Under the pieces are notes generated by a model. It did not search any database. It was given only the letters and a program-made list of their open reading frames with translations, and was not told the origin of the DNA. A DNA stretch of 64,000 nt from an uncultured Gammaproteobacteria bacterium. Lineage in GTDB: Bacteria > Patescibacteriota > Microgenomatia > Daviesbacterales > UBA10151. Position numbers and translations under genes: made by a program. Positions 9,458 through 63,300 of the stretch are shown piece by piece (the stretch's first letter is position 1; each line of letters begins with the position of its first letter). The stretch is from contig CAZXEW010000030.1 in NCBI GenBank assembly GCA_964640215.1, positions 17,920-81,919 on the forward strand, written 5' to 3'.

Positions 9458-9525
9458 AGGCAGGAGTGCATGTGCGTAGTTTAGCAGTAATGGTGAGTTT
9501 GTCAAATTGTGATATTATCTACTGG

Positions 9526-21762: not shown

Positions 21763-21831
21763 ATTTTAGTCAAGGGGAGAATTAATCCCTCGTTGTGTCC
21801 TCCAGAAAGCGTTCGCTAGGTAATTACTTTG

Positions 21832-21854
21832 TCATTCCCGCGGAGGCGGGAATC
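21832..21854. repeat. hairpin repeat element copy (GTCATTCCCGCGGAGGCGGGAAT)
   Basis: Member of the dispersed ATTCCCGC-N3-GCGGGAATGAC family. Intergenic. Confidence 0.6.
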
Positions 21855-22040: not shown

Positions 22041-22583
22041 TTATGCCTCGAGGATTACAAATTGCATATTTTCTTTAGCAAAGACAGTGGGTTTTTGGGG
22101 GAAATAACTTTGGGAAGGCATAGTTTCTTCTGTATCACCTGCCCAAGAGAGAAAAAACATATATGATCGACCAGTCCGATTAAGCTCGACGGCATCATAA
22201 TCACTGACTCCTTTGAGTGTCCTAGCGTTTAGCATCATCACAGCGGTATATCGATCGACTTGTTCTTGTGATAGATTATTCAAATAGATACTGATTTCAA
22301 TTGGTAGAGTGGTTAGTTTTGGAGCTAATATACTGCTATGAGCTTCAAACTCAACATTAAATGGGCCAGCCGGCGTACTGACACCATCGAAATCCTCCAG
22401 AAACTGTTCAGCCGAAGGGTGGGTAAAGAGTAGCTTACCTGGGCCAACGCCAATTATATCGAGGAGAGCTGTTTGTTCAGGTAGTGCCAGTCCTGTAGGA
22501 GAAGTGTCAATACTAGGGGGAATAGGAAACGGTACGCCAACCCTGACTGGAGTAGGTGTGATTTCAGCGGATTCAAGAGACAT
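22041..22583 (-). CDS. hypothetical protein
   Basis: 180-aa ORF with coding-like composition. No motifs recognised. Confidence 0.4.
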   Translation of the reverse strand: MSLESAEITPTPVRVGVPFPIPPSIDTSPTGLALPEQTALLDIIGVGPGKLLFTHPSAEQFLEDFDGVSTPAGPFNVEFEAHSSILAPKLTTLPIEISIYLNNLSQEQVDRYTAVMMLNARTLKGVSDYDAVELNRTGRSYMFFLSWAGDTEETMPSQSYFPQKPTVFAKENMQFVILEA

Positions 22584-22774
22584 ATCTTGGGTACAATATA
22601 TGGTATCCAGGATGATGTCAAGTAGATAGAGAGTGATTGACTGCAGAAGAATTAATATCGAAGTCAGGTTTTTTAAAACTAAAGTGTAGTCAGTTGAGAT
22701 AGAGTCAGTATGGAACTAGGCAATCAGAGATGGTACTGACGTAACTTGAGTGAGGGTGGGACAAACCAGAGTAG

Positions 22775-22817
22775 ATTCCCGACTTCTCGGGAATGACAAA
22801 GGGGAAACGGGAATGAC
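22775..22817. repeat. hairpin repeat element copy (ATTCCCGACTTCTCGGGAATGAC plus a second GGGAATGAC unit)
   Basis: Read directly. Intergenic. Confidence 0.6.
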
Positions 22818-22881: not shown

Positions 22882-22934
22882 GAGATCCTTCGCTAGGACG
22901 CTCAGGATGACAAAAGGGAATGGTCAGGATGACA
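22882..22934. repeat. variant repeat element (GAGATCCTTCGCTAGGACGCTCAGGATGACA ... GGTCAGGATGACA)
   Basis: Related to the copy at 58848-58878 (GAGATCCTTCGCTAAGACGCTTCAGGATGACA). Confidence 0.5.
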
Positions 22935-27509: not shown

Positions 27510-30487
27510 TCTGCGATAAATTGGTAGGGTGGTAGAGTTTGGAAAAAGTGAAATAGCTGTTGAAATAGCTGGGTAAGATTACGGTTTTCAGTTGGTGAAT
27601 GAGTTGGGGAGGGTTTGGGGGTAGGTTTTGGTGTTGAGGCAGGTGATGGTTTAGATGAGTGGGTCGGTCGTGGTGATTTTATGGGTTTTGGACTTGCGGA
27701 AGGCCTGAGAGCAGGACTTGGTTTCGGTGAGGGAGTAGGATATGGAGTAAATAACGGTAAGGGTGTGGGAGAAATAGTTGGTGTAGGTGTTGGGGTTGGT
27801 GAGGGGGTGGGTGATGACGTTGGAGATGGTGAAGAAGTTGGTGAAAGTGTCGCTTCTGGAGTTGGTGAGGGACTCGGTGATGAAGAGGGTTCTGCTGTAG
27901 GTGTCGGATCTGGGCTAGGGGTTGGTGTAGGTGAAGGAGTTGGTGATGGAGAAGAAGTTGGAGTTGGCGGCAAAACGATGTTGATAATTGTGGTTTGAGG
28001 CTGTTCTTGATTGCCGGCATTGTCGGTTGAGAAGAATTGGAGAGTGGTTTGGCCTGGTTTTGAGATGATGAATGGTTCGGTATAGATGTTGATTGCTTGA
28101 CCGTTATCCAAGCTATACTCGGTTTTGAGAATTCCTGAGCCGTTGTCGTTGCTGGCCAATTTGACAGTAACTGGTTCAGTATAGTTGTCTTGGTTATCGG
28201 TAGGCTGCTCGATTTGGAGATTAGTGATCGGAGGAGTTTGGTCAGTTCCGGCGATGGTTGAACTTGATGGAGTGTCAATTCCATTGACCGTGATGCTTTG
28301 AGGGGTGAGTGTAGCGGGGTCGATTGGAATCTCAACCGGTGAGCTGGTAGTGATTGGGATGTTTATGTAAGTGGTTGTTTGGGCGATTTGGTCATTAGCG
28401 TAATCTCGGATTTTGGGACTAACTTTGATGTTGGTTGTCGAGCTGATTTTAGCTTTGAGTTTAGGGGCCTTCTTTTTAGCAAAAGCGTGTTTGGTTTTGT
28501 CCTGGACGTTATAGAAAGTATCAGGGATATTGGTTTCGATCTCGCCACTACTGTTTAGACCGGTGTGATTACCGGCATCATCATAGAGGTCTAAATTGCC
28601 ATCATCGATGGTGATCTGTTTGCCTTCGAGGTCGATTTTTTGGCTTTTGATCTCGATCGGATAGCTGTCACCTTCGTTCAGAATAGTTTTGGCGGTTTTC
28701 ATACAGGCGCCGTTTTCATTGATCAAATCGTTGTGGATCTGCTCGGAATAGAAGATTTGAGCGCCAGCAGATAGATCAAGTGAGCCTTTTTTGAGAGAGG
28801 CGCTGTAAAGCGGAACGGTGTGGTCGCCGTTGATATAGGTCTCGTCTTTTTTGGGGAAAAGATTAATTGGCCAGGTGACAGCGTAGGTTTCTTTGATCTG
28901 GCCGATGGTTGGTTGGCCGGTTCCAACACATTGGTAGAGTTTGACTCCGTTGTTTTGGTTAAAAGTGGCGTCTAGGTTAATGTGAAACTGTTCAGCCAGG
29001 TTGAAGGCGGTCATGTTGGAATTTATATTTTTTAGGAGAACCTTAGTTTGGTAGTAATCAAGATCGCCGGTGGCGCCGTTGTTATCGACATCGCTCATAT
29101 CGCTGAATGGGAACGGTAGCTGAGGAGTGGAGTTGTCGTAGAAATCGAAGTACCTAGAAGCTGGTAATAGATCAAACATACTTGTAAAATTTTGAGATAA
29201 ATCCTTAACTTCGCTGTCTGGAATAATATTGAGGTTTAAAAACAGAAATTTAGACTTGATTGGATTACCATAGAGGAGGGTTTTTAATGCTAACGAGGTG
29301 CCTAAATGGGGTGTCCCGAGCTCGATTAGTTTATTAACTTTGGTGGCTCTGGTAGGATTGGAGGTGTAATTTCGGGCGACTAAACCGCCCATGGAGTGGG
29401 AGAGGATATTGACTTTGGGTTGGCCAGTTTTGAGTTTGGCTTGTTCGATCAGGGCATCCAAGTCCTCGACTGTTCCCCCAACGTCTTTTCGCCAATCGTA
29501 GGTGAAGACGAAATAATCCACCCCTTTGGTGTAGCCGTTGTGTTCAAAAAAAGCATCGATCCCGCCGTAACCTTGGGGGGTTGGCCAGCCGGTTAAGCCA
29601 ATATCCGCCTCAGAAGTGACCCCGTCTGATTTTAGCTTCAAAACATCAAAATAATCATCGTTGCCGAGCTGAACAGCCTCGTTTTCATTAACCCAGATTT
29701 TTTCGCCGCTCAGGTAAGTATGTGAGTAGGTGCCGCTATGGCCATTATCGCCCGAGTAGTTAATATCTTGGTTGGCCTTCAGCTCTGAACCGCCAAGTCC
29801 GGGAATAAAGACGACCGGAAATTTTTGTTTACTAAGTGAGGTGACTACGACATTGTCGAAACGGACGATCGAAGTACCGATATCTCCTGTCCAGTAGGAT
29901 AGGGATAATCCGCCGGTTTTGACTTGTGTTCCTGTATCGTCCAAATCAAAAGCCAGGGTTGAGTCAATCCACATTTGGAGGTGTTCGTTGACTATTTCGA
30001 GCTTGAGGTGATAATTTTGGTTTTTTTTGAGCGGGATGGCGTGAGTGTCGACGAGAGTAGAATGGACACCGTTTTCGACTTTAGCTAGGATAACCTCGGG
30101 GGTGTTGTAGGTATTAGCACCGTCATTGAAGCGCATAGTAACCTCGTAGGTGTTGTTGGGGTCTTTTCGGCGGAAACCAATGCCGGCATCGACTCCCCCG
30201 TCCATCCGAATATCCAGTTCGGCTCGGTAGTTGTCCCAGGGTTGGTCTTTGTTGATGCGCCCGGTGTTAAGCCGGCCGGTTTTGAAGCCGAGTAGGCGCT
30301 GTTCTGAGTCGATTGACCAGTTGCCTGATTCAATGGTCCAATTATTGAGATTAGTGGTGAAATTATCGGAAAAAAGAGTGGATCCGGTTTGGTAATTTTC
30401 GGTGGCAAAGGCATTTTTGGGCCAAAGAAAAGCGAAGAGGAGGAGGATTGTCAGAAAACTAGTAAAGACTTTTAATGATCTAGCCAC
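27467..30487 (-). CDS. secreted multidomain protein: LamG/DUF1080-like lectin domain, LCAT/lipase-like alpha/beta hydrolase, Ig-like domains and a C-terminal P/S/T-rich region
   Basis: Signal peptide [39 protein letters not shown] ... [14 protein letters not shown] (GxSxG nucleophile elbow). ~150 aa of PTPSP low complexity near the C-terminus. Confidence 0.65.
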
Positions 30488-32483: not shown

Positions 32484-32951
32484 ATGAAGTGCTGCTACTG
32501 CGCAAGTGTACTTAGCAAAGTTATTGACAAGCGAGAGGTTCAATCAACAGGGGAAATAAGGCGGCGGCGGGAGTGTTTGAAATGCCATAAACGGTATACG
32601 ACCTATGAGCGGGTGGCGGGTTTGGAGTTGATGGTGATCAAAAGGGATGGTCGCAAGGAGGCCTTTAGCCGGGATAAAATTCGCAGTGGGTTGGAGAGGG
32701 CATTGGAGAAGCGGCCCGGGATCGGTCAGGTGGGTGAGATCGTCGAGCGGATTGAGGCGAAGCTGAGAAGCAAAGGTGAAAAGATGGTAGCCTCGAAAGT
32801 GATCGGTCAGGCGGTGCTGATTGAGCTGCGAAAGATAGATAAAGTGGCTTATTTGCGGTTTGCGTCGGTTTATCGCTCCTTTCAGACGATGGGAGATTTT
32901 TCGAAGGAGCTGGAGTCGCTGGATAAGGTTCATCATAGCGAACATATATGA
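32484..32951 (+). CDS. nrdR: transcriptional repressor NrdR (zinc ribbon plus ATP-cone)
   Basis: MKCCYCAS...RRRRECLKCHKRYTTYER zinc ribbon followed by an ATP-cone. Overlaps the nrdJ start. Confidence 0.85.
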   Translation: MKCCYCASVLSKVIDKREVQSTGEIRRRRECLKCHKRYTTYERVAGLELMVIKRDGRKEAFSRDKIRSGLERALEKRPGIGQVGEIVERIEAKLRSKGEKMVASKVIGQAVLIELRKIDKVAYLRFASVYRSFQTMGDFSKELESLDKVHHSEHI

Positions 32952-35900
32952 AAAAAATTCAAAAACAGCGAGCAGTCTATCAACAAATTAGCCCGGTGAC
33001 CCGGTCGGTTCAGGACAGCGGTGAGATCCGTCCCCGTGTAGACAAGCAGATATTAGGTAAAAAATTTACGCCATGGTTTACTCCTGAGGTGTCGAGTCCG
33101 ACTCAATTGGAAGGTGTCAGACAGAAGGTTTTTTTGGACCGCTACGCCAACAAAGATGAGAAAGGTCAGCCGATTGAGCAAACGCCCGAGGAGATGTGGA
33201 CTAGGGTAGCCAACGGCATCGCTGAGATGGAGAAGACTCCAAAGTTAAAGCGCTATTGGGCGGAGCAATTTTATAAAGCGATGGAAGGGTTTAAGTTTGT
33301 ACCTGGCGGCAGGATTCTGTCTGGTGCCGGGACGGGTTATCAGGTGACGTTTTTTAATTGTTATGTTATCCCCTCCCCTGAGGATTCGCGCCGGGGGATT
33401 ATGGAAAATATTATGCACACAGTCGAGATTCAATCCCGGGCCGGTGGGGTGGGGGTCAATCTATCGTCGCTACGTCCAAACGGGGCCCGGGTTCGTAAGG
33501 TCAATGGGACATCGTCCGGTCCGGTCAATTGGGCGGCGCTATATTCAACAGCTAATCATGATGTGATCCAACACGGGGGTTCGAGGCGGGGGGCGTTAAT
33601 GCTGATGCTGCATGACTGGCATCCGGATTTGGTGGAGTTTATCCATGTTAAAGAAGATCTGTCAAAGATCCCCGGGGCTAATTTGTCGATTTGCGTCTCG
33701 GATAAATTTATGAAGGCGGTTAAAGAGGATGGGGAGTGGACGACCCGGTTTCCAGATCACTCAGATCCGGAGTATGACGAGCTGTGGGATGGCGATATCG
33801 AAGCTTGGGAGGCGAAGGGTAAACCGGTTATGATTTTTGCAACCTATAAAGCCCGGGATCTCTGGCGGCAAATTTGTACGGCGGCCTGGCAGTCAGCTGA
33901 GCCTGGCTTGCATTTTCTGGAGCGGTCAAATAAGCAATCAAACACTTTTTATTTTGAGAAACTTTTGAGCACAAATCCGTGCTTGACAGGAGATACCTGG
34001 GTTCATACCAATGATGGGCCTAAGCAAGTTAGCGATTTAATTGGGACCGAGTTTTTGGCTAGGATTAACGGTCAAAATTATTTATCGGGTCCAGGAGGCT
34101 TCTTTAAAACGGGAACAAAGCAGGTTATCAGGCTCCAAACTGTTGAAGGTTATCATCTGAGGTTAACCCGGAATCACTTGATTAAACGAGTACTTCCGAC
34201 GGCTTCTAGGCAGATAGAGACGGAGTGGTGCGAGGCAGGACAACTCAAGATAGGCGATCAAATTTTGCTTCACGATCATCGAGCGAATCCCTATTGGACT
34301 GGAGAATACAATGATAAGGAAGGATATTTAATGGGGCTGCTGGTTGGTGATGGTACTTTGAAGACTGATAAAGCCGTTTTGTCGGTCTGGGGTGGCGAAA
34401 ATGTTCATAACTTGGCTTATATTCCGGGGGTCCATGAAGTGATGCAGTTTGCCCTGCAAAATGCCTTTTCAGTTCCTCATCGGCGCGATTTTACGGGTTG
34501 GATGGCCATTCCAGGGCGTAACGAACATCGGTTGGCATTAGGATATATCAAACACTTAGCTCACCAACTGGGGATGTTTCCGGGTCGAAAAACAATTACA
34601 CCGGAGGTCGAAAAGACTTCGAGCGATTTTTACCGCGGTTTTTTGAAGGGATTGTTTGATGCTGATGGTTCGGTGCAAGGATTGGATGGTCGCATTTCGG
34701 TTCGGTTAGCTCAATCAGATTTGGGTTTTCTGGAAGCAGTTCAGCGGATGTTACTGCGTCTTGGAATTTTTTCCCACATCTACAAAAATAGACGAAAAGC
34801 TGGTTTGAAACTGCTCCCGGATGGTAAAGGTGGGTATAAAGAATATGCCACTCGGGCCCAGCACGAACTTTCGATCACTAAGGATAATGTGGAAGTTTTT
34901 AACGATTTGATCGGTTTTGCTAACAGTAAGAAAGCAACTGATTTAGCGAATAAGATAAGAGCCCATAGCAAGAGAGGTTTTTACAGTGAAAGGTTTGTGG
35001 TCAGGGTTGAAAGTTTAGAAACTGAAGCTAAAACTGAGGTTTTTGATGTTAAGATTCCGGGTGTAAACTATTTTGATGCCAACGGAATAGTGGCCCATAA
35101 TTGTGGGGAGCAGCCGTTGGGGGCTTGGGCGGTTTGTAATTTGGGGGCGATGAATCTGGCCGCCTATGTCAAGGATGGACAGTTTGATTACACGGGTTTG
35201 GATGCTGATGTGCGGGTGGCGATGCGGTTTATGGATAATGTGGTTAATGCTAATTATTATTTCTACGATATTAATGAAGAGAAAGCCAAAGAGATTCGCC
35301 GGACTGGAATAGGGACGATGGGGTTGGGGGACGCACTGATTAAGATGCAGATGCCGTATGGTTCAGCGGAGAGTTTGGCGGAGATTGAGAAGATTTACAA
35401 AACAATTAGGGACGCGGCCTATGAGACTTCAGCGGATTTAGCAACTGAGAAAGGTCCGTTTCCGATGTTTGTGGCTGAAAAGTTTGCCAAAGGTCATTTT
35501 ATTCGTCAATTGTCACCCTCACTCCAAGCTAAGATTGCTAAGCAGGGGATCAGAAATGCGGTGATACTGACACAGGCGCCGACTGGAACGACCTCGCTGG
35601 TGTCAGGCGTGTCTTCGGGGATTGAGCCGGTTTATGATTTTGCGATGATTAGAAAAGACCGGATCGGGGAGCATGTAATTTATCATCCCCTGTATCAAAA
35701 ATGGATGGAAGAAAATCCGGGGGCGAGTCAGAAACCGGACTATTTTGTGTCAGCCAACGACCTGACGCCAGATGAGCATGTTCAAGTTCAAGCCTTGATT
35801 CAAAAATATACTGACTCGTCGATTTCAAAAACTGTCAACGCGCCGAACAACCACACGATTGAGGATGTCGAAAAATTGTATATGGATGCTTACGATCTGG

Positions 35901-36568
35901 GGTGCAAGGGTGTGACTTATATGCGGGATGGTTCGCGTCTGGGGGTGCTAAGTCATATTGAAGAGAAAAAAGAAGCTGAGCCGGAGGTAGCTGCGCAGCC
36001 GGTGATCATGCATCGGCCGATGATGTTGGCCGGCCGAACTTATAAGGTTGAGACTCCGATGGGCGAGGCATTTATGACTATTAACCGGGACGATCAGAAC
36101 AACCCTTACGAGGTGTTTGTTAATATTGCCAAAGGCGGGATGCATACCAGTGCTGACGCTGAAGCGATCGGCCGGTTGATCTCGATGAATTTGCGCTACT
36201 CAAAGGGCAGTCGAATTGATACGGCCAGGCGGATTGTGTCCCAGCTGCGGGGGATCGGTGGTTCGCACAGTGTCGGGTTTGGTAAAGACCGGGTGATGAG
36301 TTTGGCGGACGCGGTGGCGAAAGTGCTGGCTGAAGAGATTGATTTAGCGACGGGTCAAGGTCAAACACCCGAGCCGGAGATGATGTCACTTCCATTGACT
36401 GTCGAGAGTCCGGCGGTCGATGAGGCAGTGTCTGCGCCCGCTGTTGAATTTAAAAATGGCTTGGCCAAGCACAACCATGCTGATCTTTGTCCGGAATGCG
36501 GCGGGGCCAGCCTGGTTCGGGAAGAGGGTTGCTCGAAATGCTACTCCTGCGGATATTCTAAGTGCTAA
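32948..36568 (+). CDS. nrdJ: ribonucleoside-diphosphate/triphosphate reductase, class II (adenosylcobalamin-dependent), containing an intein
   Basis: Catalytic block NP|CGEQPLGAWAVCNL split by an insertion. C-terminal zinc ribbon CPECGG...CSKCYSCGYSKC. 1206 aa including a 374-aa intein. Confidence 0.9.
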   Translation: MKKIQKQRAVYQQISPVTRSVQDSGEIRPRVDKQILGKKFTPWFTPEVSSPTQLEGVRQKVFLDRYANKDEKGQPIEQTPEEMWTRVANGIAEMEKTPKLKRYWAEQFYKAMEGFKFVPGGRILSGAGTGYQVTFFNCYVIPSPEDSRRGIMENIMHTVEIQSRAGGVGVNLSSLRPNGARVRKVNGTSSGPVNWAALYSTANHDVIQHGGSRRGALMLMLHDWHPDLVEFIHVKEDLSKIPGANLSICVSDKFMKAVKEDGEWTTRFPDHSDPEYDELWDGDIEAWEAKGKPVMIFATYKARDLWRQICTAAWQSAEPGLHFLERSNKQSNTFYFEKLLSTNPCLTGDTWVHTNDGPKQVSDLIGTEFLARINGQNYLSGPGGFFKTGTKQVIRLQTVEGYHLRLTRNHLIKRVLPTASRQIETEWCEAGQLKIGDQILLHDHRANPYWTGEYNDKEGYLMGLLVGDGTLKTDKAVLSVWGGENVHNLAYIPGVHEVMQFALQNAFSVPHRRDFTGWMAIPGRNEHRLALGYIKHLAHQLGMFPGRKTITPEVEKTSSDFYRGFLKGLFDADGSVQGLDGRISVRLAQSDLGFLEAVQRMLLRLGIFSHIYKNRRKAGLKLLPDGKGGYKEYATRAQHELSITKDNVEVFNDLIGFANSKKATDLANKIRAHSKRGFYSERFVVRVESLETEAKTEVFDVKIPGVNYFDANGIVAHNCGEQPLGAWAVCNLGAMNLAAYVKDGQFDYTGLDADVRVAMRFMDNVVNANYYFYDINEEKAKEIRRTGIGTMGLGDALIKMQMPYGSAESLAEIEKIYKTIRDAAYETSADLATEKGPFPMFVAEKFAKGHFIRQLSPSLQAKIAKQGIRNAVILTQAPTGTTSLVSGVSSGIEPVYDFAMIRKDRIGEHVIYHPLYQKWMEENPGASQKPDYFVSANDLTPDEHVQVQALIQKYTDSSISKTVNAPNNHTIEDVEKLYMDAYDLGCKGVTYMRDGSRLGVLSHIEEKKEAEPEVAAQPVIMHRPMMLAGRTYKVETPMGEAFMTINRDDQNNPYEVFVNIAKGGMHTSADAEAIGRLISMNLRYSKGSRIDTARRIVSQLRGIGGSHSVGFGKDRVMSLADAVAKVLAEEIDLATGQGQTPEPEMMSLPLTVESPAVDEAVSAPAVEFKNGLAKHNHADLCPECGGASLVREEGCSKCYSCGYSKC
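33980..35101 (+). mobile_element. intein (374 aa) with LAGLIDADG homing-endonuclease domain inserted in the NrdJ active-site motif
   Basis: Starts with Cys (CLTGDTWVHT), ends with HN followed by the +1 Cys of the CGEQ motif. Two LAGLIDADG motifs: LMGLLVGDGT and LKGLFDADGSV. Confidence 0.8.
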
Positions 36569-38332: not shown

Positions 38333-38346
38333 TACTATCGGTTTTA

Positions 38347-38359
38347 GGGTTGAACCCTT
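38347..38359. repeat. REP-like 13-nt palindrome AGGGTTGAACCCT downstream of btuR (possible terminator hairpin)
   Basis: Same 6-1-6 architecture as the RAYT-associated AGGGTCCGACCCT. Confidence 0.35.
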
Positions 38360-38573
38360 AATCTTATAGTTTAATGGACCTTTTAAACCAGATGATTTTG
38401 AAGTTGAGGCTGTGGAATTTTTCGGTTTAGACGAGGTTCAGAAGATGATTGATAGTGGTGAAACTTTCGCATCTGAGACGTTGTTTGTTCTGGGGAAGTA
38501 TTTTTGGTTAAAGATGTCGAGCGGATAAATGAAGCAAGGGTAGATTATTAAACCTGAAGAACTTTCAACGATA

Positions 38574-40124: not shown

Positions 40125-40370
40125 GACGGGATTCTGGAGGTGCAGGCTTCCCAGAATGACAGGGTTAGAAGATTGCCACTCCGACGGTTGCTGGATCGTA
40201 ATGACGTGGTAGTGTTTAGCGGTAGTCGGTCAGCGGTAAGCTGATTTGGAGGGTTGACAGGAGTTAGCACTCGTGATAATATTCTGCTAATTATTAAGCG
40301 AAACTCTGAGAATAAAGGTAACTTCTCGACTTCGCTTAGAAGAAAATATAGAGGCTCGGAGAATATATAG

Positions 40371-40413
40371 ATTCCCGCCTTCGCGGGAATGACGAAAATA
40401 AAATGGGAATGAC
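40371..40413. repeat. hairpin repeat element copy (ATTCCCGCCTTCGCGGGAATGAC plus a second GGGAATGAC) ending 2 nt before the lon ATG
   Basis: Read directly. Degenerate relatives at 40130-40200. Confidence 0.6.
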
Positions 40414-40415
40414 GA

Positions 40416-42824
40416 ATGAATATGCCGATTGACGTAATATCACATCCCCTGAAACTCAAAAGCGTGCTGCCGGTTGGACCGCTGCGCGGGACGGTTATTT
40501 ATCCGGGAGCCAATGTGCCGATTATCTGCGGGCGGGCCAAATCGCGCTCTGCCTTGGATGCGGCTTTTGCGACCGATCGGTTGATCGTCTTTGTGACCCA
40601 GAAAAATGAACGGTTGGATGAGCCGACGGTCAAAGATTTGTTTCAGGTCGGGACGGTCTGTCTGATCAAGCGGGTGGTTAGAGTCGAAAACGAGTATCAA
40701 GTTCAGGCTGAGGGTTTGGTGCGGGTCTTTTTGAAAAATTATACCCAGTTGGAGCCTTTCTTTGAGGCCGAAATTGATGAAATCCCGGAGCTGTTTGAGA
40801 AAAATGAAGAGACCGAGGCGCTGAGCCGGACGGTCCGAGAGCAGCTCAAACGCTATTTAGAGCTAAGCGGCAATCCGTGGATTGATCCGACCACTCTTCA
40901 AAACTGGTCGATGTTGTCGTTTAACGACGATCCGAATCAGCTGGTCAATACGATCTGCCAGGCGATTGATTTTAAGACCATTGATAAGCAGCAAATTTTG
41001 GAAACGATCTCGGCGGTCGAGCGGTTACGGAGGGTGTCGGAGCTGCTGGCCAAGGAGCTGAGGATTTTAGAGATTTCCCAGAAAATTTCCTCACATACTC
41101 AGGAGCGGGTGTCGCGAATGACTAAAGAGGCGATTTTGCGTGAGCAGATGCGTTCGATCGAGGAGGAGTTGGGGGAGAATAATGAGAATCAGGAAATTCG
41201 CGAATTTGAATTGAAGATCCGTAAGGCGACCATGCCTAAAGAGGTTCGGGAGAAGGCCATCAAAGAGCTATCGCGGCTGGCCAAGATGTCGACCTATAAC
41301 CCGGAGGCAGGTTATATCCGCAATTATTTGGAATGGCTGACTGATTTGCCCTGGAAGGTGTCTGGCAAGACCAAAGTCGATATGAGATCAGCTGAAAAGA
41401 TTTTGGATGAAGATCATTATGGGCTGAAAAAGGTCAAGGAGCGGATTTTGGAATATTTGGCGGTCTATAAATTGTCGGGCAAAATTAAGGGTCCGATTTT
41501 GTGTTTTGCCGGACCTCCGGGAGTAGGTAAGACGTCGATTGGTAAATCAATTGCCCGCTCTCTTGGGCGAAAATTTGTCAAAGTATCTTTAGGTGGAATA
41601 CGGGATGAGGCGGAGATTCGGGGTCATCGACGAACTTATGTTGGCTCGATGCCGGGGCGAATCGTCCAATCGATCAAGCAGGCCGGGGTGACCAATCCGG
41701 TGTTTATGCTGGATGAGATTGATAAAGTTGGGGCAGACTACCGTGGTGATCCGTCGGCGGCTTTGCTGGAGGCGTTGGATCCGGAGCAAAATAACCAGTT
41801 TTCTGACCATTATTTGGAGGTGCCGTTTGATCTGTCGAATGTGATGTTTATTACGACTGCTAATGTGCTTGATACGATTCCACCGGCCCTGCGGGATCGG
41901 TTAGAGGTGATCCGCTACGCGGGCTACACCCAGGATGAGAAGTTTCATATCGCCAAGAAATATTTGATTCCTAAAACTGTCGAGTCGAGCGGGTTGAAGC
42001 CTAATCAGATCGAGTTTGAAGATAAAGCGGTTGAAAAGATCATTGATAGTTATACTCGTGAGGCTGGAGTGCGCAGTTTGGAGCGGGAGATTGCGGGAGT
42101 GGTCCGAAAAGTGGTCCGTAAGATCGCTGATGGAGATGTCAAAAAGACCTTTGTAGTGACCAGCGAAGAGATTGAAAAGCTGCTGGGGCCGATTAAGTTC
42201 TTTCCGCAGCTGGCTGAGATTGAAGATATGGTTGGTGCGACTACGGGGTTGGCTTGGACTGAAGCTGGTGGGGATATTTTGTTTATCGAAGTGTCGTTGA
42301 TGCCAGGTCGAGGCCAAATTGTGCTGACCGGGCAGCTTGGAGATGTGATGAAGGAGTCGGCACAGGCGGCGATGTCGTATGTCCGCTCAAACTGGCACAA
42401 GATCGGTCTGCCGGAGCGGTTTTTCCATAAAGTTGATGTCCATGTCCATGTGCCGGACGGCGCGACTCCCAAAGATGGCCCATCAGCCGGGAGTGCGTTG
42501 ACCACGGCGATTGTGTCGGCTTTTACTAAGGTGCCGGTTCGAAAAGACGTGGCGATGACCGGTGAGGTGACACTGAGAGGTCGGGTGTTGGAGATCGGGG
42601 GTTTGAAGGAAAAAGTGATAGCGGCTCACCGGGCTGGAGTCAAAACCGTGATTGCTCCTGAAAATAATCGAAAAGACCTGGAGGATATTCCAGATTACGT
42701 TCGAAACGAGATGAATTTTGTGTTTGTCAAACACATGGATGATGTTTTGGCCGTCGCCCTGTCACGCCCACCGGTTGCCGGCAGCCTCAAACACCGCCCT
42801 CTCCCCGCTCCGGCGTTTGCCTAG
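40416..42824 (+). CDS. lon: ATP-dependent protease La (Lon)
   Basis: Lon N-domain, Walker A GPPGVGKTS, and a protease domain with PKDGPSAG around the catalytic Ser. Confidence 0.9.
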   Translation: MNMPIDVISHPLKLKSVLPVGPLRGTVIYPGANVPIICGRAKSRSALDAAFATDRLIVFVTQKNERLDEPTVKDLFQVGTVCLIKRVVRVENEYQVQAEGLVRVFLKNYTQLEPFFEAEIDEIPELFEKNEETEALSRTVREQLKRYLELSGNPWIDPTTLQNWSMLSFNDDPNQLVNTICQAIDFKTIDKQQILETISAVERLRRVSELLAKELRILEISQKISSHTQERVSRMTKEAILREQMRSIEEELGENNENQEIREFELKIRKATMPKEVREKAIKELSRLAKMSTYNPEAGYIRNYLEWLTDLPWKVSGKTKVDMRSAEKILDEDHYGLKKVKERILEYLAVYKLSGKIKGPILCFAGPPGVGKTSIGKSIARSLGRKFVKVSLGGIRDEAEIRGHRRTYVGSMPGRIVQSIKQAGVTNPVFMLDEIDKVGADYRGDPSAALLEALDPEQNNQFSDHYLEVPFDLSNVMFITTANVLDTIPPALRDRLEVIRYAGYTQDEKFHIAKKYLIPKTVESSGLKPNQIEFEDKAVEKIIDSYTREAGVRSLEREIAGVVRKVVRKIADGDVKKTFVVTSEEIEKLLGPIKFFPQLAEIEDMVGATTGLAWTEAGGDILFIEVSLMPGRGQIVLTGQLGDVMKESAQAAMSYVRSNWHKIGLPERFFHKVDVHVHVPDGATPKDGPSAGSALTTAIVSAFTKVPVRKDVAMTGEVTLRGRVLEIGGLKEKVIAAHRAGVKTVIAPENNRKDLEDIPDYVRNEMNFVFVKHMDDVLAVALSRPPVAGSLKHRPLPAPAFA

Positions 42825-47662: not shown

Positions 47663-47875
47663 TAGTCATTTTCCATCGTAACAGCCAAGTTGGTTCTTGA
47701 CAAGGTTGGGGAAGATGTCTAGACTAGAATTCCAGAGGCATGAACTGCTGGAGATTTATTAGAATCAAAAAAACGATAAAAAAAGTAAATATGTGTTGTC
47801 GTTTTGAGCCGAGAGGCTCTATTTTTTTGGGAAAAAATTGTCATCCCCGATCCAATCGGGGATCCAGTTGGATAG

Positions 47876-47932
47876 ATTCCCGCCTCCGCGGGAATGACAA
47901 AGGGAGCGAGGATGATAATGGGAGGAATGACA
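47876..47932. repeat. hairpin repeat element copy (ATTCCCGCCTCCGCGGGAATGAC plus GGATGATAATGGGAGGAATGAC), preceded by a second hairpin TCATCCCCGATCCAATCGGGGATCC
   Basis: Read directly. Sits in the promoter region of the AsnA-like gene. Confidence 0.6.
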
Positions 47933-55288: not shown

Positions 55289-56803
55289 ATGGCATTAGAG
55301 GAGGTTAAGAAAGACCGGCTCAAAAAGCTGGCGAATATCAAGAATCTGGGGATTGATCCTTATCCGGCGAAAGCGGAGCGAAAGCAAGCGGTAGCGCAAG
55401 CCTTGGATTTGTTAGGTAAAAAAGTGACCGTGGTGGGACGTATTAGGTCTCTTAGACCGCATGGCAAAATTGCCTTTGCGGATTTGGAGGATGAGTCAGG
55501 GAAGATTCAGTTGCTGTTTACGGAGATGGGTTCCCGCCTACGCGGGAATGACAGCAGAGGGAGTGGGAATGACAAGGGGAGGAGTGGGAATGACAAGAAA
55601 GAATGGAATGGAGGCGGCGGGTTTGATTTTTTGAATAATTTGGATCTCGGGGATTTTTTGGAGGCATCGGGTGAGGTTATAAAAACTCAAGCAGGGCAAA
55701 CGACGGTTCAGGTCGATGATTTTAGGTTGTTGACGAAATCTTTGCGGCCGCTGCCGGTCGAGCATTTCGGGTTGAAGGATACGGAAGAAAGATTGCGTAA
55801 GCGTTATTTAGACCTGATTTTGAATCCGGAAGTTAAAGAAATGTTTCGGCTAAAAACCAAGTTTTGGGCCAGCCTGCGCAGCTTTTTGATCGAAAAAGGC
55901 TTTTTGGAGGTTGAGACGCCGGTGCTGCAGGCGATTCCGGGAGGAGCTGATGCCCGGCCGTTTGTGACTCATCACAACGCCCAGGATATGGACCTATATT
56001 TACGGATTTCTTTGGAGCTGCCGCTGAAACGGTTACTGGTTGGCGGTTTTGAGAAGGTCTTTGAGATCGGCCGGATTTTCCGAAACGAGGGGATTGATGA
56101 CGAGCATTTGCAGGATTATACTCAACTGGAGTTTTATTGGGCGTACGCTGATTACAACCAGCTGATGGATTTTGTTCAGGAGATGTATCAGCGGGTGATA
56201 TCGGAGACTTTTGGGAGATTAACCACCAGTTGGCATGGTCATGAGATAAATTGGGAAGGTGATTGGTCGAGGATGGATTATACCCAATTGCTTGACGAAT
56301 ACTGGAAGGTGAAAACCAGTGAAATGTCGGTCGATGATTTGTATGAATTGGCCAAAAAATTAGGGGTTAATGTTGAACCGAAGCTTGGAAAGTGGCGGTT
56401 GCTGGATTATCTTTATAAAAAAACGATCCGGCCGAAAATTATTCAACCGATGTTTGTGATTAATCATCCGGTCGAGGTTGAACCACTGGCTAAACGACTG
56501 GAATCGGATCTGACCAAGGTCCAAAGGATGCAGGTTTTGGCGACCGGTTCGGAGCTTGGTAAGGGTTTTTCAGAGTTGAATGACCCGATTGATCAAAAAG
56601 AGCGGTTTGTGGAGCAGGAAAAGCTGCGTAAAGGCGGCGATGAGGAGGCCCAGATGATGGATGAAGATTTTGTCGAAGCGCTGGAGTACGGGATGCCGCC
56701 GGCGGCTGGCTTTGGGATTTCGGAGAGACTGTTTTGGAGGTTGGTTGATAAAACCGCCCGGGAATGCGTCTTTTTCCCGACGATGAGGGCTGAGAAAGAA
56801 TGA
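55289..56803 (+). CDS. lysS: lysyl-tRNA synthetase (class II) carrying a ~30-aa in-frame repeat-encoded insertion in the N-terminal OB domain
   Basis: OB-fold anticodon-binding domain, motif 2 FRNEG, motif 3 AGFGISERL. The insertion MGSRLRGNDSRGSGNDKGRSGNDKKEWNGGGG is encoded by the repeat at 55531-55594. Confidence 0.9.
   Translation: MALEEVKKDRLKKLANIKNLGIDPYPAKAERKQAVAQALDLLGKKVTVVGRIRSLRPHGKIAFADLEDESGKIQLLFTEMGSRLRGNDSRGSGNDKGRSGNDKKEWNGGGGFDFLNNLDLGDFLEASGEVIKTQAGQTTVQVDDFRLLTKSLRPLPVEHFGLKDTEERLRKRYLDLILNPEVKEMFRLKTKFWASLRSFLIEKGFLEVETPVLQAIPGGADARPFVTHHNAQDMDLYLRISLELPLKRLLVGGFEKVFEIGRIFRNEGIDDEHLQDYTQLEFYWAYADYNQLMDFVQEMYQRVISETFGRLTTSWHGHEINWEGDWSRMDYTQLLDEYWKVKTSEMSVDDLYELAKKLGVNVEPKLGKWRLLDYLYKKTIRPKIIQPMFVINHPVEVEPLAKRLESDLTKVQRMQVLATGSELGKGFSELNDPIDQKERFVEQEKLRKGGDEEAQMMDEDFVEALEYGMPPAAGFGISERLFWRLVDKTARECVFFPTMRAEKE
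55531..55594. repeat. hairpin repeat element (TTCCCGCCTACGCGGGAATGAC plus two GGGAATGAC units) inserted in-frame in lysS
   Basis: Read directly. Reading frame preserved. Confidence 0.7.
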
Positions 56804-57405: not shown

Positions 57406-57500
57406 GGTCGAACAATAATTAGGATGGTCGAACAATAATTAGGATGGTCGAACAATAATTAGGATGGTCGAACAATAATTAGGATGGTCGAACAATATTT
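57406..57500. repeat. tandem repeat, 20-bp unit GGTCGAACAATAATTAGGAT x4.7, between the HD gene and serS
   Basis: Four perfect copies (57406, 57426, 57446, 57466) plus a partial fifth. No spacers. Confidence 0.85.
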
Positions 57501-57549
57501 TTTGAGCACCTCATTAATATTCTTCGAAGCCTAGTCGAGAAGTACAGAT

Positions 57550-58847: not shown

Positions 58848-58878
58848 GAGATCCTTCGCTAAGACGCTTCAGGATGAC
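58848..58878. repeat. variant repeat element GAGATCCTTCGCTAAGACGCTTCAGGATGACA downstream of serS
   Basis: Near-identical to 22882-22912. Confidence 0.5.
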
Positions 58879-58894: not shown

Positions 58895-59887
58895 TTATTT
58901 TGATTTGGGTGTTGGTGAGGCTGGTGATGCGGACGGTGAGCCAATAATGCTGCCTAAAGTGGCAGGGCCAGTGACTGATGAGCCGCTGGCAGTGGCCGGA
59001 GCGGGCGTAGGTTGAATTAGTAGTTTAGGAGGGTTGGTTAAGGGTGGTTGGGTAACGGCAGGGACAGAGGCAGGGGCGGTGGAGGCGCTGGTGTTACCTC
59101 GGCCGAAGAAAAAATATATCGAACCAGCCGCAACTAATAAGACGACGATAACAGCCCCAATTATCATTAGTAGTGTAACCTTGCTGGATTGAGTTCCTTT
59201 GGGTGGTTCTGAGGCTGGGGTAGGTGCGGGGGCAGCAGCGAATTGATTATTGGAGTTGTAGGTCGAAGGATTGTAGACAGAGGAGTTGTTTTGATTATCA
59301 GGCGAGAGGGCAGCGATGTGGGAGAGGTCAGTGGGGGCTGGTTCTGACATTTCCGGTGGAGCTGTGTTAGCAGGAGGCGGAGGAGAGTCGGTGGTTGGTG
59401 GTGCTGGAGGAGGTGTGGGGTCGGAAGTTGGGTTGTTTGGCCAGGGCGGAGTTGGTGGTGGAGTGAAAGGCGGGGAAGTGGGGGTTGGAAATGGTGAGGT
59501 GCCGATGGTGGAGGTGTTTGGGTCGAGGGTGGTGTTGATAGATTGTGGAGTTTGAGGAGGTGGAATTTGAAGAGGATCTACGGTTGGGGTTGGAAAAGGT
59601 GGATTGGTGGATGGTGGTATCGAATCGAACGGTTGGCTCGGCGGATCAGGTGCATGAGGTTGGATGGGAGGGGTTGGATATATAGATGGACCCGTTGGGT
59701 TGTTGAAATTCGGTGCAGGAGGATCGTTAGGGGGAGTTGGAGTGGGAGGCCATGGCAAAGTGGCACCAGGAATGCTAGCAGCGGTGGGATCGTTGGCTAG
59801 AGGTGTGGGTTGAGGTGGTGGGATAGCGGCGCCAGGGACGTTATTGTTTGGATCGCTAGGTGGATTTTGGTTGTTTTGATCGTCCAT
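58895..59887 (-). CDS. proline-rich low-complexity protein with C-terminal TM helix
   Basis: PPxP-rich throughout, one hydrophobic helix LLMIIGAVIVVLLVAAGSIYFFF. Gene status uncertain. Confidence 0.4.
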   Translation of the reverse strand: MDDQNNQNPPSDPNNNVPGAAIPPPQPTPLANDPTAASIPGATLPWPPTPTPPNDPPAPNFNNPTGPSIYPTPPIQPHAPDPPSQPFDSIPPSTNPPFPTPTVDPLQIPPPQTPQSINTTLDPNTSTIGTSPFPTPTSPPFTPPPTPPWPNNPTSDPTPPPAPPTTDSPPPPANTAPPEMSEPAPTDLSHIAALSPDNQNNSSVYNPSTYNSNNQFAAAPAPTPASEPPKGTQSSKVTLLMIIGAVIVVLLVAAGSIYFFFGRGNTSASTAPASVPAVTQPPLTNPPKLLIQPTPAPATASGSSVTGPATLGSIIGSPSASPASPTPKSK

Positions 59888-60238: not shown

Positions 60239-60351
60239 GGCGTAATTTTACTCCAGGCTTAGGGTAAATACAATACCGAAGCTGGGCGTGCGTTGGTGGC
60301 GTCTCATTTTTGTGAGACATGCGTCTCAATCTGCGATATAATACAGCAACA

Positions 60352-63300
60352 ATGTTGAATATTTTTAATAATTTTCTAGACGCGAATAGGCGGGAGATCA
60401 ATCGGTTGAGTGCGATTGTGGTAAAGATAAATTCCTTTGACGGTAAAATAAAAAAACTGACCGATAAACAACTCAAAGAGAAAACGGCTGATTTTAAAAA
60501 GCGTCTGACAAAAGGTGAATCTCTGGTTGATTTGTTGCCAGAGTCATTCGCGGTGGTGAAAGAGGCCTTTCGGCGGACTCTCAAAATTGATTTATTTGAT
60601 GTCCAGATGATGGCGGCGATCGCGGTCCACTTGGGTAAGATTGCGGAGCAGAAGACGGGAGAGGGTAAGACTTTCTCAGTGGTGCCGGCGATTTATCTGA
60701 ATGCTTTGATCGAGCGGGGGGTGCATGTGGTGACTGTCAATGACTACTTGGCGAGGCGGGATTGCGGGTGGGTGGCGCCGGTGTTTGAGATGCTTGGTTT
60801 GAGGTGTGCGGCGATTATTCATGAAGAAGCGTTTATTTTTAATCCGAGACACAAAGCCGAAGGGATTGATGATCCGCGATTGAAACATCTTCATCCAGTG
60901 TCTCGAAAAGAGGCCTACGACGCGGATATTACCTATGGAACGAATAACGAGTTTGGCTTTGACTATTTGCGTGATAACATGGCTCATACCCTGGCGGATC
61001 AAAAACAACGGGGGCATTATTTTGCGATTGTTGACGAGGTTGACTCAATATTAATCGATGAAGCTAGGACACCGCTGATTATCTCCGCGCCAGCCCAGGA
61101 ACCGACGGATAAATATGTCCGGTTTGGTAAAGTGATTGATCAGTTGTCAGCAGCGACGGATTTTGTGGTTGATGAGAAGCTGCGGACAGCTCACTTGACC
61201 GAGCATGGGACGATCAAGATTGAGAAAATTTTGGGGGTGGAAAATTTGTATGAGAATGATTTTTCGACGCTGCATCATTTGGAAGAGGCTCTGAAAGCCC
61301 GGACGCTGTTTTCGAAAGATAAGGATTATGTGGTTCGAGACGACGAGGTGATTATTGTTGATGAGTTTACGGGGCGGTTGATGCCGGGAAGGCGGTATTC
61401 GGAAGGATTGCATCAGGCGATTGAGGCTAAGGAGGGTGTGACGATCCAGCAGGAGTCTAAGACGATGGCGACGGTTTCGTTTCAGAATTATTTTCGGATG
61501 TATGAAAAGCTAGCCGGGATGACCGGGACAGCGGCGACGGAGGCGGAGGAGTTTCATAAAATTTATAAGCTGGATGTGGTGATCGTGCCGACTAATATGC
61601 CGACCCAGCGCAAAGATCACCCGGATTCGATATTTAAAACAGTTTCAGCCAAATACACGGCGGTGGCGGAGGAGATTGGTAAAATTCATGAGAGCGGCCA
61701 GCCGGTGTTGGTAGGGACGACTTCGATTGAGAAAAATGAGTTTTTATCGGAGCTGCTGAAGCGCAAAAAGATCTCGCATGCCTTGCTGAATGCTAAAAAC
61801 CACCAACGTGAGGCGGAGATCATCGCTGATGCTGGGCAGAAGGGGTCGGTGACGGTGGCGACTAATCTAGCCGGACGAGGAGTGGATATTAAGTTGGCTA
61901 AAGGAGTGCCGGACTTGGGCGGATTGTATGTAATCGGAACCGAGCGACATGAATCGAGGCGGATTGATAATCAGCTGCGGGGGCGCTCAGGCAGGCAGGG
62001 TGATCCAGGGGCGAGTAAATTTTTCGTGTCGCTGGAAGATGATTTGATGCGGATTTTTGGTGGGGAGCAGGTGGCTAAGGTGATGAACTTTTTGAAGGTG
62101 CCGGAGGACACACCGATTGAGAACCCACTAGTGTCGCGGGCGCTGGAAGGGGCCCAGAAAAAAGTCGAGGGGCATAACTTTGATATGCGAAAACACACCG
62201 TTGAATATGACGATGTGATGAATCAGCAGCGCAAGATTATTTACGGGGTCCGCCAGCAGATTTTGGTGGCCGCGTCCACGTCGAACGTGGCTAGCGCAAA
62301 CGCGGCTGGCGCGGCGGCAAATGTGGGTTCATCTTCTGTCATTCCCGCGAAGGTCGAAGATCCCCGAACGGGGGCGGGAATCCATGGATCCCCGAACGGG
62401 GTCGGGGATGACAAAAATGTCGGCTTGAAAGACGACATTTTGGAGAAGGTCCGTAAAGAAGTTGATCAGATCGTCTCGGTTAATGCGCTGGAGGAGGTTA
62501 ATAAAGAGAAGATTATTGAGGAATTTTGCGCGATTATTCCGTTTGATGAGAACAGTCAAAAGGGGTTGGTCCAACAGTTGGGGCAGTTTAGTTCAGGAGA
62601 GCAGATTGGCGAATTTTTAGGGAAGTTGGCGATGGATCTATACGTCCAAAAGGAAAAACAAATGGGGACGGAGGCCGCTCGCCAAATCGAAACTTTTGTC
62701 TATTTGCAGACAATGGATGAGCTATGGATAGAGCATTTGGATACGGTTGATGATCTGCGGAGCGGGATTAATTTGCGGGCTTACGCGCAACGTGATCCGC
62801 TGGTCGAGTATAAGCGCGAGGCTTTTGATCTGTTTGATAAATTGATTCAGGCGATTGACAGTGCTGTAGTCCACCGGATTTACCGGGTGTCGATACCAAA
62901 TCAGCAGCCGATTATGGTCCAGCCAGTCCAGGAAATTCACCAAGAGGCTTTGGATGAAGATTTGTTGAAGGAGGAAGTTGGTCAGCTGATCAGTCCTTTA
63001 GATAGAGACTTGGAAAAATCGGATGCGAACGTACGGGTTGAACGCGATTCATCACCCGTAATTGCCGCTTCTTCTGTCATTCCCGCGGAGGCGGGAACCC
63101 AGTTAAGTCATCCTGAACTCGATTCAGGATCCGGTAATTCCAACACCCGAGTCACTATCGAGCGGGCCGGTGCTAATCCTATTGTTCAGGAAATCCGCGG
63201 CGACGGAGCCACCACCCGGACTCACGCCAAAATCGGCCGCAACGATCCCTGCTGGTGTGGGAGCGGAAAAAAATATAAAAAGTGCCACTATCCCAATTAA
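60352..63300 (+). CDS. secA: preprotein translocase ATPase SecA, with two repeat-encoded in-frame insertions
   Basis: Start placed at MLNIFNNF. DEAD-like motor DEVDSILIDEARTPLIIS. C-terminal zinc finger CWCGSGKKYKKCH. Extra segments VAASTSNVASANAAGAAANVGSSSVIPAKVEDPRTGAGIHGSPNGVGDDKNVG (62272-62412) and SSVIPAEAGT (63076-63097) are encoded by repeats. Confidence 0.9.
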   Translation: MLNIFNNFLDANRREINRLSAIVVKINSFDGKIKKLTDKQLKEKTADFKKRLTKGESLVDLLPESFAVVKEAFRRTLKIDLFDVQMMAAIAVHLGKIAEQKTGEGKTFSVVPAIYLNALIERGVHVVTVNDYLARRDCGWVAPVFEMLGLRCAAIIHEEAFIFNPRHKAEGIDDPRLKHLHPVSRKEAYDADITYGTNNEFGFDYLRDNMAHTLADQKQRGHYFAIVDEVDSILIDEARTPLIISAPAQEPTDKYVRFGKVIDQLSAATDFVVDEKLRTAHLTEHGTIKIEKILGVENLYENDFSTLHHLEEALKARTLFSKDKDYVVRDDEVIIVDEFTGRLMPGRRYSEGLHQAIEAKEGVTIQQESKTMATVSFQNYFRMYEKLAGMTGTAATEAEEFHKIYKLDVVIVPTNMPTQRKDHPDSIFKTVSAKYTAVAEEIGKIHESGQPVLVGTTSIEKNEFLSELLKRKKISHALLNAKNHQREAEIIADAGQKGSVTVATNLAGRGVDIKLAKGVPDLGGLYVIGTERHESRRIDNQLRGRSGRQGDPGASKFFVSLEDDLMRIFGGEQVAKVMNFLKVPEDTPIENPLVSRALEGAQKKVEGHNFDMRKHTVEYDDVMNQQRKIIYGVRQQILVAASTSNVASANAAGAAANVGSSSVIPAKVEDPRTGAGIHGSPNGVGDDKNVGLKDDILEKVRKEVDQIVSVNALEEVNKEKIIEEFCAIIPFDENSQKGLVQQLGQFSSGEQIGEFLGKLAMDLYVQKEKQMGTEAARQIETFVYLQTMDELWIEHLDTVDDLRSGINLRAYAQRDPLVEYKREAFDLFDKLIQAIDSAVVHRIYRVSIPNQQPIMVQPVQEIHQEALDEDLLKEEVGQLISPLDRDLEKSDANVRVERDSSPVIAASSVIPAEAGTQLSHPELDSGSGNSNTRVTIERAGANPIVQEIRGDGATTRTHAKIGRNDPCWCGSGKKYKKCHYPN
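62272..62412. repeat. two adjacent repeat elements inside secA: the GC-rich tRNA-flank family (62272-62318, reverse orientation) and the hairpin family (62338-62412, nested CCCCGAACGGGG hairpins)
   Basis: Read directly. Frame preserved across both. Confidence 0.7.
63076..63097. repeat. hairpin repeat core GTCATTCCCGCGGAGGCGGGAA inside the secA C-terminal linker
   Basis: Identical core to the copy at 21832-21854. Confidence 0.65.

Follow-up and report, generated by a model that had tools for sequence, protein, structure and literature searches.

How does one short hairpin repeat come to lie both between genes and, translated in frame, inside essential genes of the same bacterium? The question is raised by a 64,000-nucleotide stretch of a metagenome-assembled contig (CAZXEW010000030.1, positions 17,920 to 81,919, assembly GCA_964640215.1; hereafter the window) from a member of the Daviesbacterales, within the candidate phyla radiation (CPR; Patescibacteria). 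The original prediction, made from the DNA letters and their open reading frames (ORFs), described a hairpin repeat that occurs intergenically as well as in frame within lysS, which encodes lysyl-tRNA synthetase (LysRS), and within secA. The same repeat was indeed found in both settings, and the identities of the two host genes were confirmed using Pfam. The best explanation, which we consider probable, is that a repeat of the Neisseria Transformation Sequence (NTS) and Ssn-related motif (SRM) class multiplied in a CPR genome and that a few copies were kept in frame in tolerant loops.

The inventory of the element covered the 64-kb window. The half-site GGGAATGAC occurred 12 times against an expectation of 0.46, a number reached in none of 100 shuffles. 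The full hairpin, TTCCCG-N6-CGGGAA, occurred six times against an expectation of 0.12, with matches of this pattern at 21835, 22776, 40372, 47877, 55531, and 63080. A stricter scan for GTC followed by a perfect palindrome starting with AT and then by C yielded seven perfect-stem elements. Together with the two copies in which the terminal stem pair is changed (lysS and secA 63076), the composite secA copy, and two CCTGAGCG-type variants, the total is at least 12 GTCAT-hairpin-ATC elements. Most copies are intergenic; five are intragenic, one in lysS and four in secA, and all five are in frame. The repeat is therefore present where it had been placed and far above chance, including the variants at 22882 and 58848. 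The original prediction had missed the fourth secA copy, at 63107-63131, GTCATCCTGAACTCGATTCAGGATCC.

In the GTCAT orientation, the unit reads GTC-ATTCCCGC-GNAG-GCGGGAAT-C; that is, GTC, then a palindrome beginning and ending with AT, then C, for a length of 24-30 nt. The hairpin loop is 4 nt (CTCC, CTTC, or CTAC). Accordingly, the core pattern first proposed, ATTCCCGC-N3-GCGGGAATGAC, had no match in the window even with three mismatches allowed. The core is identical in three copies, and the stems covary via compensating changes (TTCCCGC/GCGGGAA, TTCCCGA/TCGGGAA, TCCCCGA/TCGGGGA, and TCCTGAA/TTCAGGA). The flanks, GTC on the 5' side and C on the 3' side, are constant in all seven perfect-stem copies, as well as in those of lysS and secA 63076. 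Folded as single-stranded DNA (ssDNA), the canonical hairpins have energies of -8.4 to -8.9 kcal/mol (z = -3.2 to -3.9); the fold of the CCTGAGCG-type variants is weak. One to three half-sites of the form GTCATTCCC lie 5' of the hairpin, at a spacing of 20 nt in the intergenic copies and 21 nt in lysS. At two sites, 47840-47898 and secA 62338-62412, a variant and a canonical hairpin form an inverted doublet. Doublets span 60-75 nt, the longest composite being 75 nt. Read directly, the core has stop codons in only one of its six frames.

The original prediction had found no family to which the repeat could be assigned. A described family does exist: dRS3/NTS, within the SRM class (PMC11893778, Nat Commun 2025). 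As presented in that paper, NTS is a 28-nt oriented element, CGTCATTCCCGCGMAVGCGGGAATCYRG, and dRS3 (ATTCCC-N8-GGGAAT) sits within NTS in about half of its Neisseria copies. NTS belongs to the wider SRM class, and ssn genes in many phyla are flanked by SRM. The Ssn proteins are small GIY-YIG nucleases that bind and cut ssDNA hairpins; the Neisseria enzyme, SsnA, has 94 residues, binds NTS as ssDNA, and cuts a few nucleotides upstream. The bases critical for SsnA are the three that precede the palindrome and the C that follows it (PMC11893778); these are the positions occupied by the conserved GTC and C flanks of the window copies.

Against the published 28-nt consensus, the copy at 40367-40394(-) has one mismatch, four copies have at most three, and all six canonical copies have at most four. 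The dRS3 pattern is exact in the copies at 21834, 22775, 40371, and 47876; the lysS and secA 63076 copies read GTTCCC...GGGAAT and differ from it at the terminal base. The published degenerate SRM pattern gave four matches, among them the lysS copy and two stem variants, against 0.18 expected (maximum of two in 100 shuffles). Based on its sequence and architecture, the window element is accordingly assigned to the dRS3/NTS/SRM class. It resembles the described members in its near-identical sequence, its GTC-palindrome-C orientation, the predicted ssDNA hairpin, high copy number, and variable stems with fixed flanks, and an exact 22-mer is common to many phyla. It differs in its CPR host, in the lack of an ssn gene within the 64 kb, and in its 20-21-nt half-site arrays, of which we found no mention in PMC11893778. 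Patescibacteria and CPR do not appear in the main text of that paper. A scan of the window at Rfam gathering thresholds returned only a tRNA. We found no open-access paper that reports NTS/SRM copies in frame within CPR proteins.

In lysS, the DNA at 55531-55594 reads GTTCCCGCCTACGCGGGAATGAC, followed by two further GGGAATGAC units. The insert amounts to 25 residues, MGSRLRGNDSRGSGNDKGRSGNDKK (LysRS 80-104). LysRS and SecA were each aligned with 119 homologues; identity to the closest, which belong to Levybacteria, Daviesbacteria, and other Microgenomates, is 60-70%. The LysRS segment is missing in 118 of the 119, and the alignment thus indicates a lineage-specific in-frame insertion. The sole exception, database protein P0041, has VDSRLRGND a few residues downstream within the same loop. 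The corresponding DNA, GGATTCCCGCCTTCGCGGAAATGAC, shows the element again, here with a single mutation in the stem, and no further copy lies in the 22 kb around it. The P0041 copy therefore represents an independent, older event, and it is decaying. In the AlphaFold (AF2) model of LysRS, whose mean predicted local distance difference test (pLDDT) score is 80, residues 79-109 form a coil between an OB-fold strand (71-78) and a helix (110-117), with pLDDT <50 at residues 89-109. The 21-nt spacing of the lysS half-sites, as opposed to 20 nt in intergenic copies, would fit in-situ duplication under a frame filter, but only weakly, since spacings of 15-24 nt occur elsewhere.

In secA, the first site comprises a canonical hairpin with 21 extra nucleotides in its loop (62338-62383, +), then ATG, then a variant hairpin (62387-62412, -), and is translated in frame as VIPAKVEDPRTGAGIHGSPNGVGDD. 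The canonical copy at 63076 carries a T>C change in its terminal stem pair. The peptides of both genes are as originally quoted. The SecA loop that follows the NQQRxIIYGxR helix is 53 residues long here against a median of 11 in 120 sequences, and the C-terminal linker is hypervariable in the alignment. As in LysRS, the aligned orthologues point to lineage-specific in-frame insertions. The AF2 model of SecA has a mean pLDDT of 74.5. Scores below 50 occur at residues 648-689 of database protein P0121, a coil between the long scaffold helix and the next helix, and at residues 851-934, the C-terminal linker. Thus, the models agree with the earlier expectation that the host positions are variable loops or linkers. 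Just 5' of the hairpins, at 62265-62330, GC-rich DNA with a short palindrome, CCACGTCGAACGTGG, codes for about 20 extra residues, STSNVASANAAGAAANVGSS. These residues are missing in most SecA homologues, and the segment may be the remnant of an older insertion.

Table 1. Hairpin elements of the window and the two genes that carry in-frame copies (positions are those of the window)
Feature	Position	Strand	Context and remarks
Canonical NTS-like hairpin GTCATTCCCGCGGAGGCGGGAATC	21831..21854	+	Intergenic, between YkuD gene and ORF 22041-22583; ssDNA fold -8.9 kcal/mol, z = -3.85
Hairpin with compensated stem change GTCATTCCCGAGAAGTCGGGAATC and one upstream half-site GTCATTCCC 20 nt away	22774..22817	-	Intergenic
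Variant element GTCATCCTGAGCGTCCTAGCGAAGGATCTC and half-site GTCATCCTGACC	22882..22933	-	Intergenic; weak ssDNA fold; same class in frame in Daviesbacteria SecA
Canonical hairpin and upstream half-site 20 nt away	40370..40413	-	Between two plus-strand genes, just before Lon start
Inverted doublet: variant hairpin GTCATCCCCGATCCAATCGGGGATC (+) facing canonical hairpin (-)	47840..47898		Intergenic; degenerate half-sites run on to ~47932
lysS, class II lysyl-tRNA synthetase, 504 aa (host gene)	55289..56803	+	Pfam
lysS in-frame insertion, 75 nt	55526..55600	-	Hairpin 55529-55552 and half-sites 55565-55573, 55586-55594
Variant element GTCATCCTGAAGCGTCTTAGCGAAGGATCTC	58848..58878	-	9 nt past serS stop codon
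secA, 993-aa ORF (host gene)	60319..63300	+	Pfam; database protein P0121 starts 11 codons in
secA site 1, inverted doublet, in frame	62338..62412		Canonical hairpin (+) and variant hairpin (-)
secA site 2a, canonical hairpin, in frame (VIPAEAGT)	63076..63099	+	C-terminal linker
secA site 2b, variant hairpin GTCATCCTGAACTCGATTCAGGATC, in frame (SHPELDSGS)	63107..63131	+	

Several Microgenomates lineages have independently acquired such elements at the same two SecA sites and in the same LysRS loop. Several SecA homologues have peptides starting with VIP or VIA at the same sites (VIPSEARNP, VIPSGARNL, VIASEAKQS...ARNDD, VIARSE..., and VIATP...). In the DNA of two such relatives, both Microgenomates (L127 and L128), these correspond to GTCAT-hairpin-ATC elements with other stems, that of L128 being an inverted doublet. 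At least four stem families are represented among the hits at the shared SecA and LysRS positions. In four intragenic copies, namely the two sense-strand canonical copies of secA and those of L127 and L128, a CTTCTTC-like junction lies just 5' of GTCAT. Conceivably, the intragenic copies are not random survivors at all, and arose by site-directed ssDNA integration linked to Ssn-type nucleases or were favoured by positive selection. In the latter case, hairpins in essential genes may act as Ssn-dependent guards against allelic replacement by foreign DNA. We regard a non-random origin as rather unlikely. If true, it would join the coding palindromes of the Rickettsia type to one pan-bacterial hairpin/nuclease system.

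Beyond the window, at least 119 stretches of species-representative genomes, from more than 10 phyla, contain the exact 22-mer GTCATTCCCGCGKAGGCGGGAA. Among the matches listed, the hosts include Proteobacteria, Desulfobacterota, Bacteroidota, Chloroflexota, Planctomycetota, Nitrospirota, Rickettsiales, and many CPR groups, the latter comprising Saccharibacteria, Roizman-, Buchanan-, Magasanik-, Nomura-, Wolfe-, and Moranbacteria, and Paceibacterota. The pattern in which the loop base is unspecified, GTCATTCCCGCGNAGGCGGGAA, occurred in at least 120 viral-contig stretches. The arrangement NTS-ssn-NTS, in which a small GIY-YIG gene is flanked by the repeat, was seen at L003, L118, and L050; at L049, a small GIY-YIG gene lies within 100 bp of the exact 22-mer. 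A half-site was present upstream in 18 of 132 matches, mostly 19-24 nt away, and downstream in four; upstream half-sites are a general trait of the element. Candidate in-frame insertions were found in long ORFs of other phyla at L015 (3029-3050), L094 (5879-5900), L091 (324-345), and L079 (3398-3419). Candidate examples include a 727-aa ORF of Flavobacterium paronense (GDSRLRGNDNSGNDN), a methyltransferase-like ORF of Patescibacteria (WIPASAGMTRGGAGMT), and an ORF of Chloroflexota with the array DSRLRGNDEGGCGNDESGCGNDES.

On the explanation we prefer, an NTS/SRM-class repeat would have multiplied to approximately 12 copies per 64 kb in a Levybacteria/Daviesbacteria-like CPR genome. New copies would arise through an Ssn-type enzyme, or another ssDNA enzyme specific for hairpins, whose gene lies elsewhere in the genome or arrived on mobile DNA. 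A few copies would have landed in, or been copied into, surface loops and linkers at which essential proteins tolerate additions. Survival there would require an added length that is a multiple of three, a stop-free frame, and a tolerant position. The frame filter would be easily passed because five of the six core frames are open. Translation of the element gives SRLRGND... or VIPAxAG..., according to its orientation. These peptides are modelled as disordered and are proposed to be passengers rather than functional modules, and the inserts would be neutral.

Several points weigh against this explanation. Regular-expression searches and jackhmmer on the ORFs detected no GIY-YIG/Ssn gene in the window. 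According to PMC11893778, the spread of NTS copies is undemonstrated even in Neisseria, where an origin resembling insertion sequences is put forward only as a hypothesis. The same source gives 2% of NTS as intragenic in N. meningitidis, as compared with five of 12 copies here, all within translated frames. Moreover, the neutrality of the inserts is an assumption. Finally, a homology search from the one GIY-YIG ORF of a CPR genome that was found near a match (L031) revealed a CPR-wide clade of GIY-YIG proteins of 80-90 residues. This clade was rejected as the partner of NTS; its genes adjoin tRNA genes and have no NTS flanks, and for that reason no cognate nuclease is shown for any CPR genome.

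The small GIY-YIG genes of CPR genomes have features of their own. Those at L031 (4163-4492), L121 (5001-5255), L123 (2709-2960), and L125 (5001-5252) encode proteins of 83-84 residues and adjoin tRNA genes. At L123 and L031, the gene has a disrupted tRNA copy on one side and an intact one on the other, at L125 it lies between two different tRNA genes, and at L121 it stands beside an inverted repeat of a tRNA 3' end. Together, they look like a homing-type element that targets tRNA genes and is unlinked to NTS.

The original prediction compared the element with the Rickettsia palindromic elements (RPEs; Ogata et al. 2000, reviewed in PMC2229807). As regards behaviour, the comparison holds: RPEs are palindromic repeats found both in intergenic regions and in frame within conserved essential genes, at permissive positions and with open frames (PMC2229807). 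As regards membership, it does not. RPEs are 105-146 bp (PMC2229807) and form one long stem-loop, whereas here a unit measures 24-30 nt and the longest composite 75 nt, well short of the 100-150 bp range. Nor is the window element restricted to Rickettsia. When the three insert peptides were searched against NCBIfam, no match was obtained at E up to 10, and thus none to an RPE model. Membership was therefore rejected on length and on the peptide models, even though in-frame insertion is common to both, and RPE-like in behaviour is a fair description. A deeper link between RPE and SRM is possible since Rickettsiales carry the same 22-mer and PMC11893778 lists Rickettsia, together with Wolbachia, among SRM-rich genomes. 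Miniature inverted-repeat transposable elements (the 107-bp form of Correia/NEMIS, ERIC, and YPAL) are likewise small, non-autonomous, and on occasion joined in frame to ORFs, but they are 100-200 bp long with terminal inverted repeats and target-site duplications (PMC2229807). No target-site duplication was evident by eye in the flanks of the window copies, for which no formal test was run; the closest relatives share only about 70% identity in protein and thus offer no empty site for comparison in DNA.

Repetitive extragenic palindromic (REP) hairpins and their REPIN doublets offer another comparison. The GTCAT hairpins share with them short length, abundance, occasional inverted doublets, here at the two sites given above, and presumed recognition of an ssDNA hairpin. 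Moreover, the window encodes a candidate REP-associated tyrosine transposase (RAYT), of the Y1 family of IS200/IS605, at 8796-9422(-), with a Pfam Y1_Tnp match (3e-8), an NCBIfam REP_Tyr_transpos score of 32 bits, and the motifs HFHLML and YIHLNP. However, that score is well under the 80-bit cut-off. A different palindrome, TAGGGTCGGACCCTAA, flanks the gene and also occurs inside it, and no GTCAT hairpin stands beside the gene; given this link to another palindrome family, the gene is unlikely to be the mobiliser of the GTCAT hairpins, which match the NTS consensus almost base for base. REPs are, in addition, extragenic by definition. Mobilisation by RAYT is thus improbable. That the copies serve the host, either as Ssn-dependent barriers or markers that modulate the recombination of incoming DNA or as Gly/Asn/Asp-rich loops with a role in the protein, is unlikely as well, although NTS in transforming DNA lowers its integration in N. 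meningitidis in an SsnA-dependent manner (PMC11893778). The repeated use of the same SecA and LysRS loops across lineages and the perfect conservation of the core in three copies also speak for a benefit. Against it, the two orientations of the same DNA yield unrelated peptides (SRLRGND and VIPAEAG), the inserts are modelled as disordered, most homologues manage without one, and the P0041 copy is decaying. Natural competence and Ssn are both unverified in this organism, and such a benefit is not needed to explain the data.

Signals at the level of RNA, such as intrinsic terminators, attenuators, or mRNA stabilisers, have a very slim chance of accounting for the repeat. A lax consensus scan flagged three terminator-like copies (21834+, 40390-, and 47863-). 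Their tails are not true T runs, and in each case the neighbouring genes are on the strand opposite to the flagged one or lie downstream of it, the 21834(+) copy lying between two minus-strand genes and the 40390(-) copy between two plus-strand genes. Five copies lie in the middle of ORFs of essential genes, Rfam returned nothing but the tRNA, and SsnA is reported to be inactive on RNA (PMC11893778). An assembly or chimera artefact might be suspected of any metagenome-assembled contig, but nothing specific points to one here. None of the five intragenic copies breaks the reading frame, alignments with homologues are clean in the protein sequence on either side, and independent assemblies from other samples hold analogous in-frame copies. 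Because of the intact frames and these independent copies, an artefact is very unlikely, to the point of being negligible. Multiplication of an NTS/SRM-class repeat, with a few copies retained in tolerant loops, accordingly remains the explanation we favour.

Other features of the window were noted in passing. The second half-site GGGAATGAC of the element at 40370 (40405-40418) stops 2 nt before the start codon of the Lon protease gene; it may for this reason be that the element provides the ribosome-binding region of that gene or overlaps with it. The palindrome family of TAGGGTCGGACCCTAA gave 12 strand-matches in the window against 0.19 expected. Its copies stand on both sides of the gene for the 208-aa RAYT-like protein and twice inside it, in frame (LGSDPKS and PGSDPKT), with palindromes near 9443-9459, 9259-9275, 8992-9008, and 8782-8798. 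A longer related palindrome, CACTATCGG..AGGGTTGAACCCT..CCGATAGTG, occurs at 5417-5456, inside the ORF at 4806-5828, and at 38334-38373, which is intergenic. The former is in frame (SLSDTGLNPKADSV) in the linker that joins the Transket_pyr domain of a transketolase subunit to its Transketolase_C domain and may be a second kind of protein-coding palindrome. A palindrome at 3266-3282 was considered as an insertion and rejected, as it is native transketolase coding sequence (GPTL). The large subunit of ribonucleotide reductase (32948-36568(+), 1206 aa) matches Pfam intein-splicing and LAGLIDADG domains and thus harbours another selfish element in an essential gene. Between an HD-domain gene and serS, at 57406-57505, are four to five exact tandem copies of a 20-nt unit, GGTCGAACAATAATTAGGAT. 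Low-complexity sequence includes a proline-rich ORF of 330 aa at 58895-59887(-), which has no Pfam match, and a GTTGGTGA-type repeat with a 6-12-nt period at 27591-27973, inside a hydrolase-like ORF of 1006 aa.

These results extend the NTS/SRM hairpin class to CPR genomes, which the main text of its defining paper (PMC11893778) does not mention. They also indicate that such repeats are translatable inside essential proteins of streamlined genomes, a behaviour best known from Rickettsia. Odd segments of CPR proteins that are rich in Gly, Arg, Asn, and Asp, or that are of the VIPAxAG type, can be repeat-derived passengers. Segments of this origin add to the length of proteins and can mislead alignments, phylogenies, and domain assignments. 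At the same time, they mark positions that tolerate insertion: the loop from scaffold to wing and the C-terminal linker in SecA, and the OB-fold loop in LysRS. Most worth following are the recurrent insertions at the same positions and the CTTCTTC-like junction common to four of the intragenic copies. If this junction motif reflects targeting, it would provide a handle on how NTS/SRM repeats spread.

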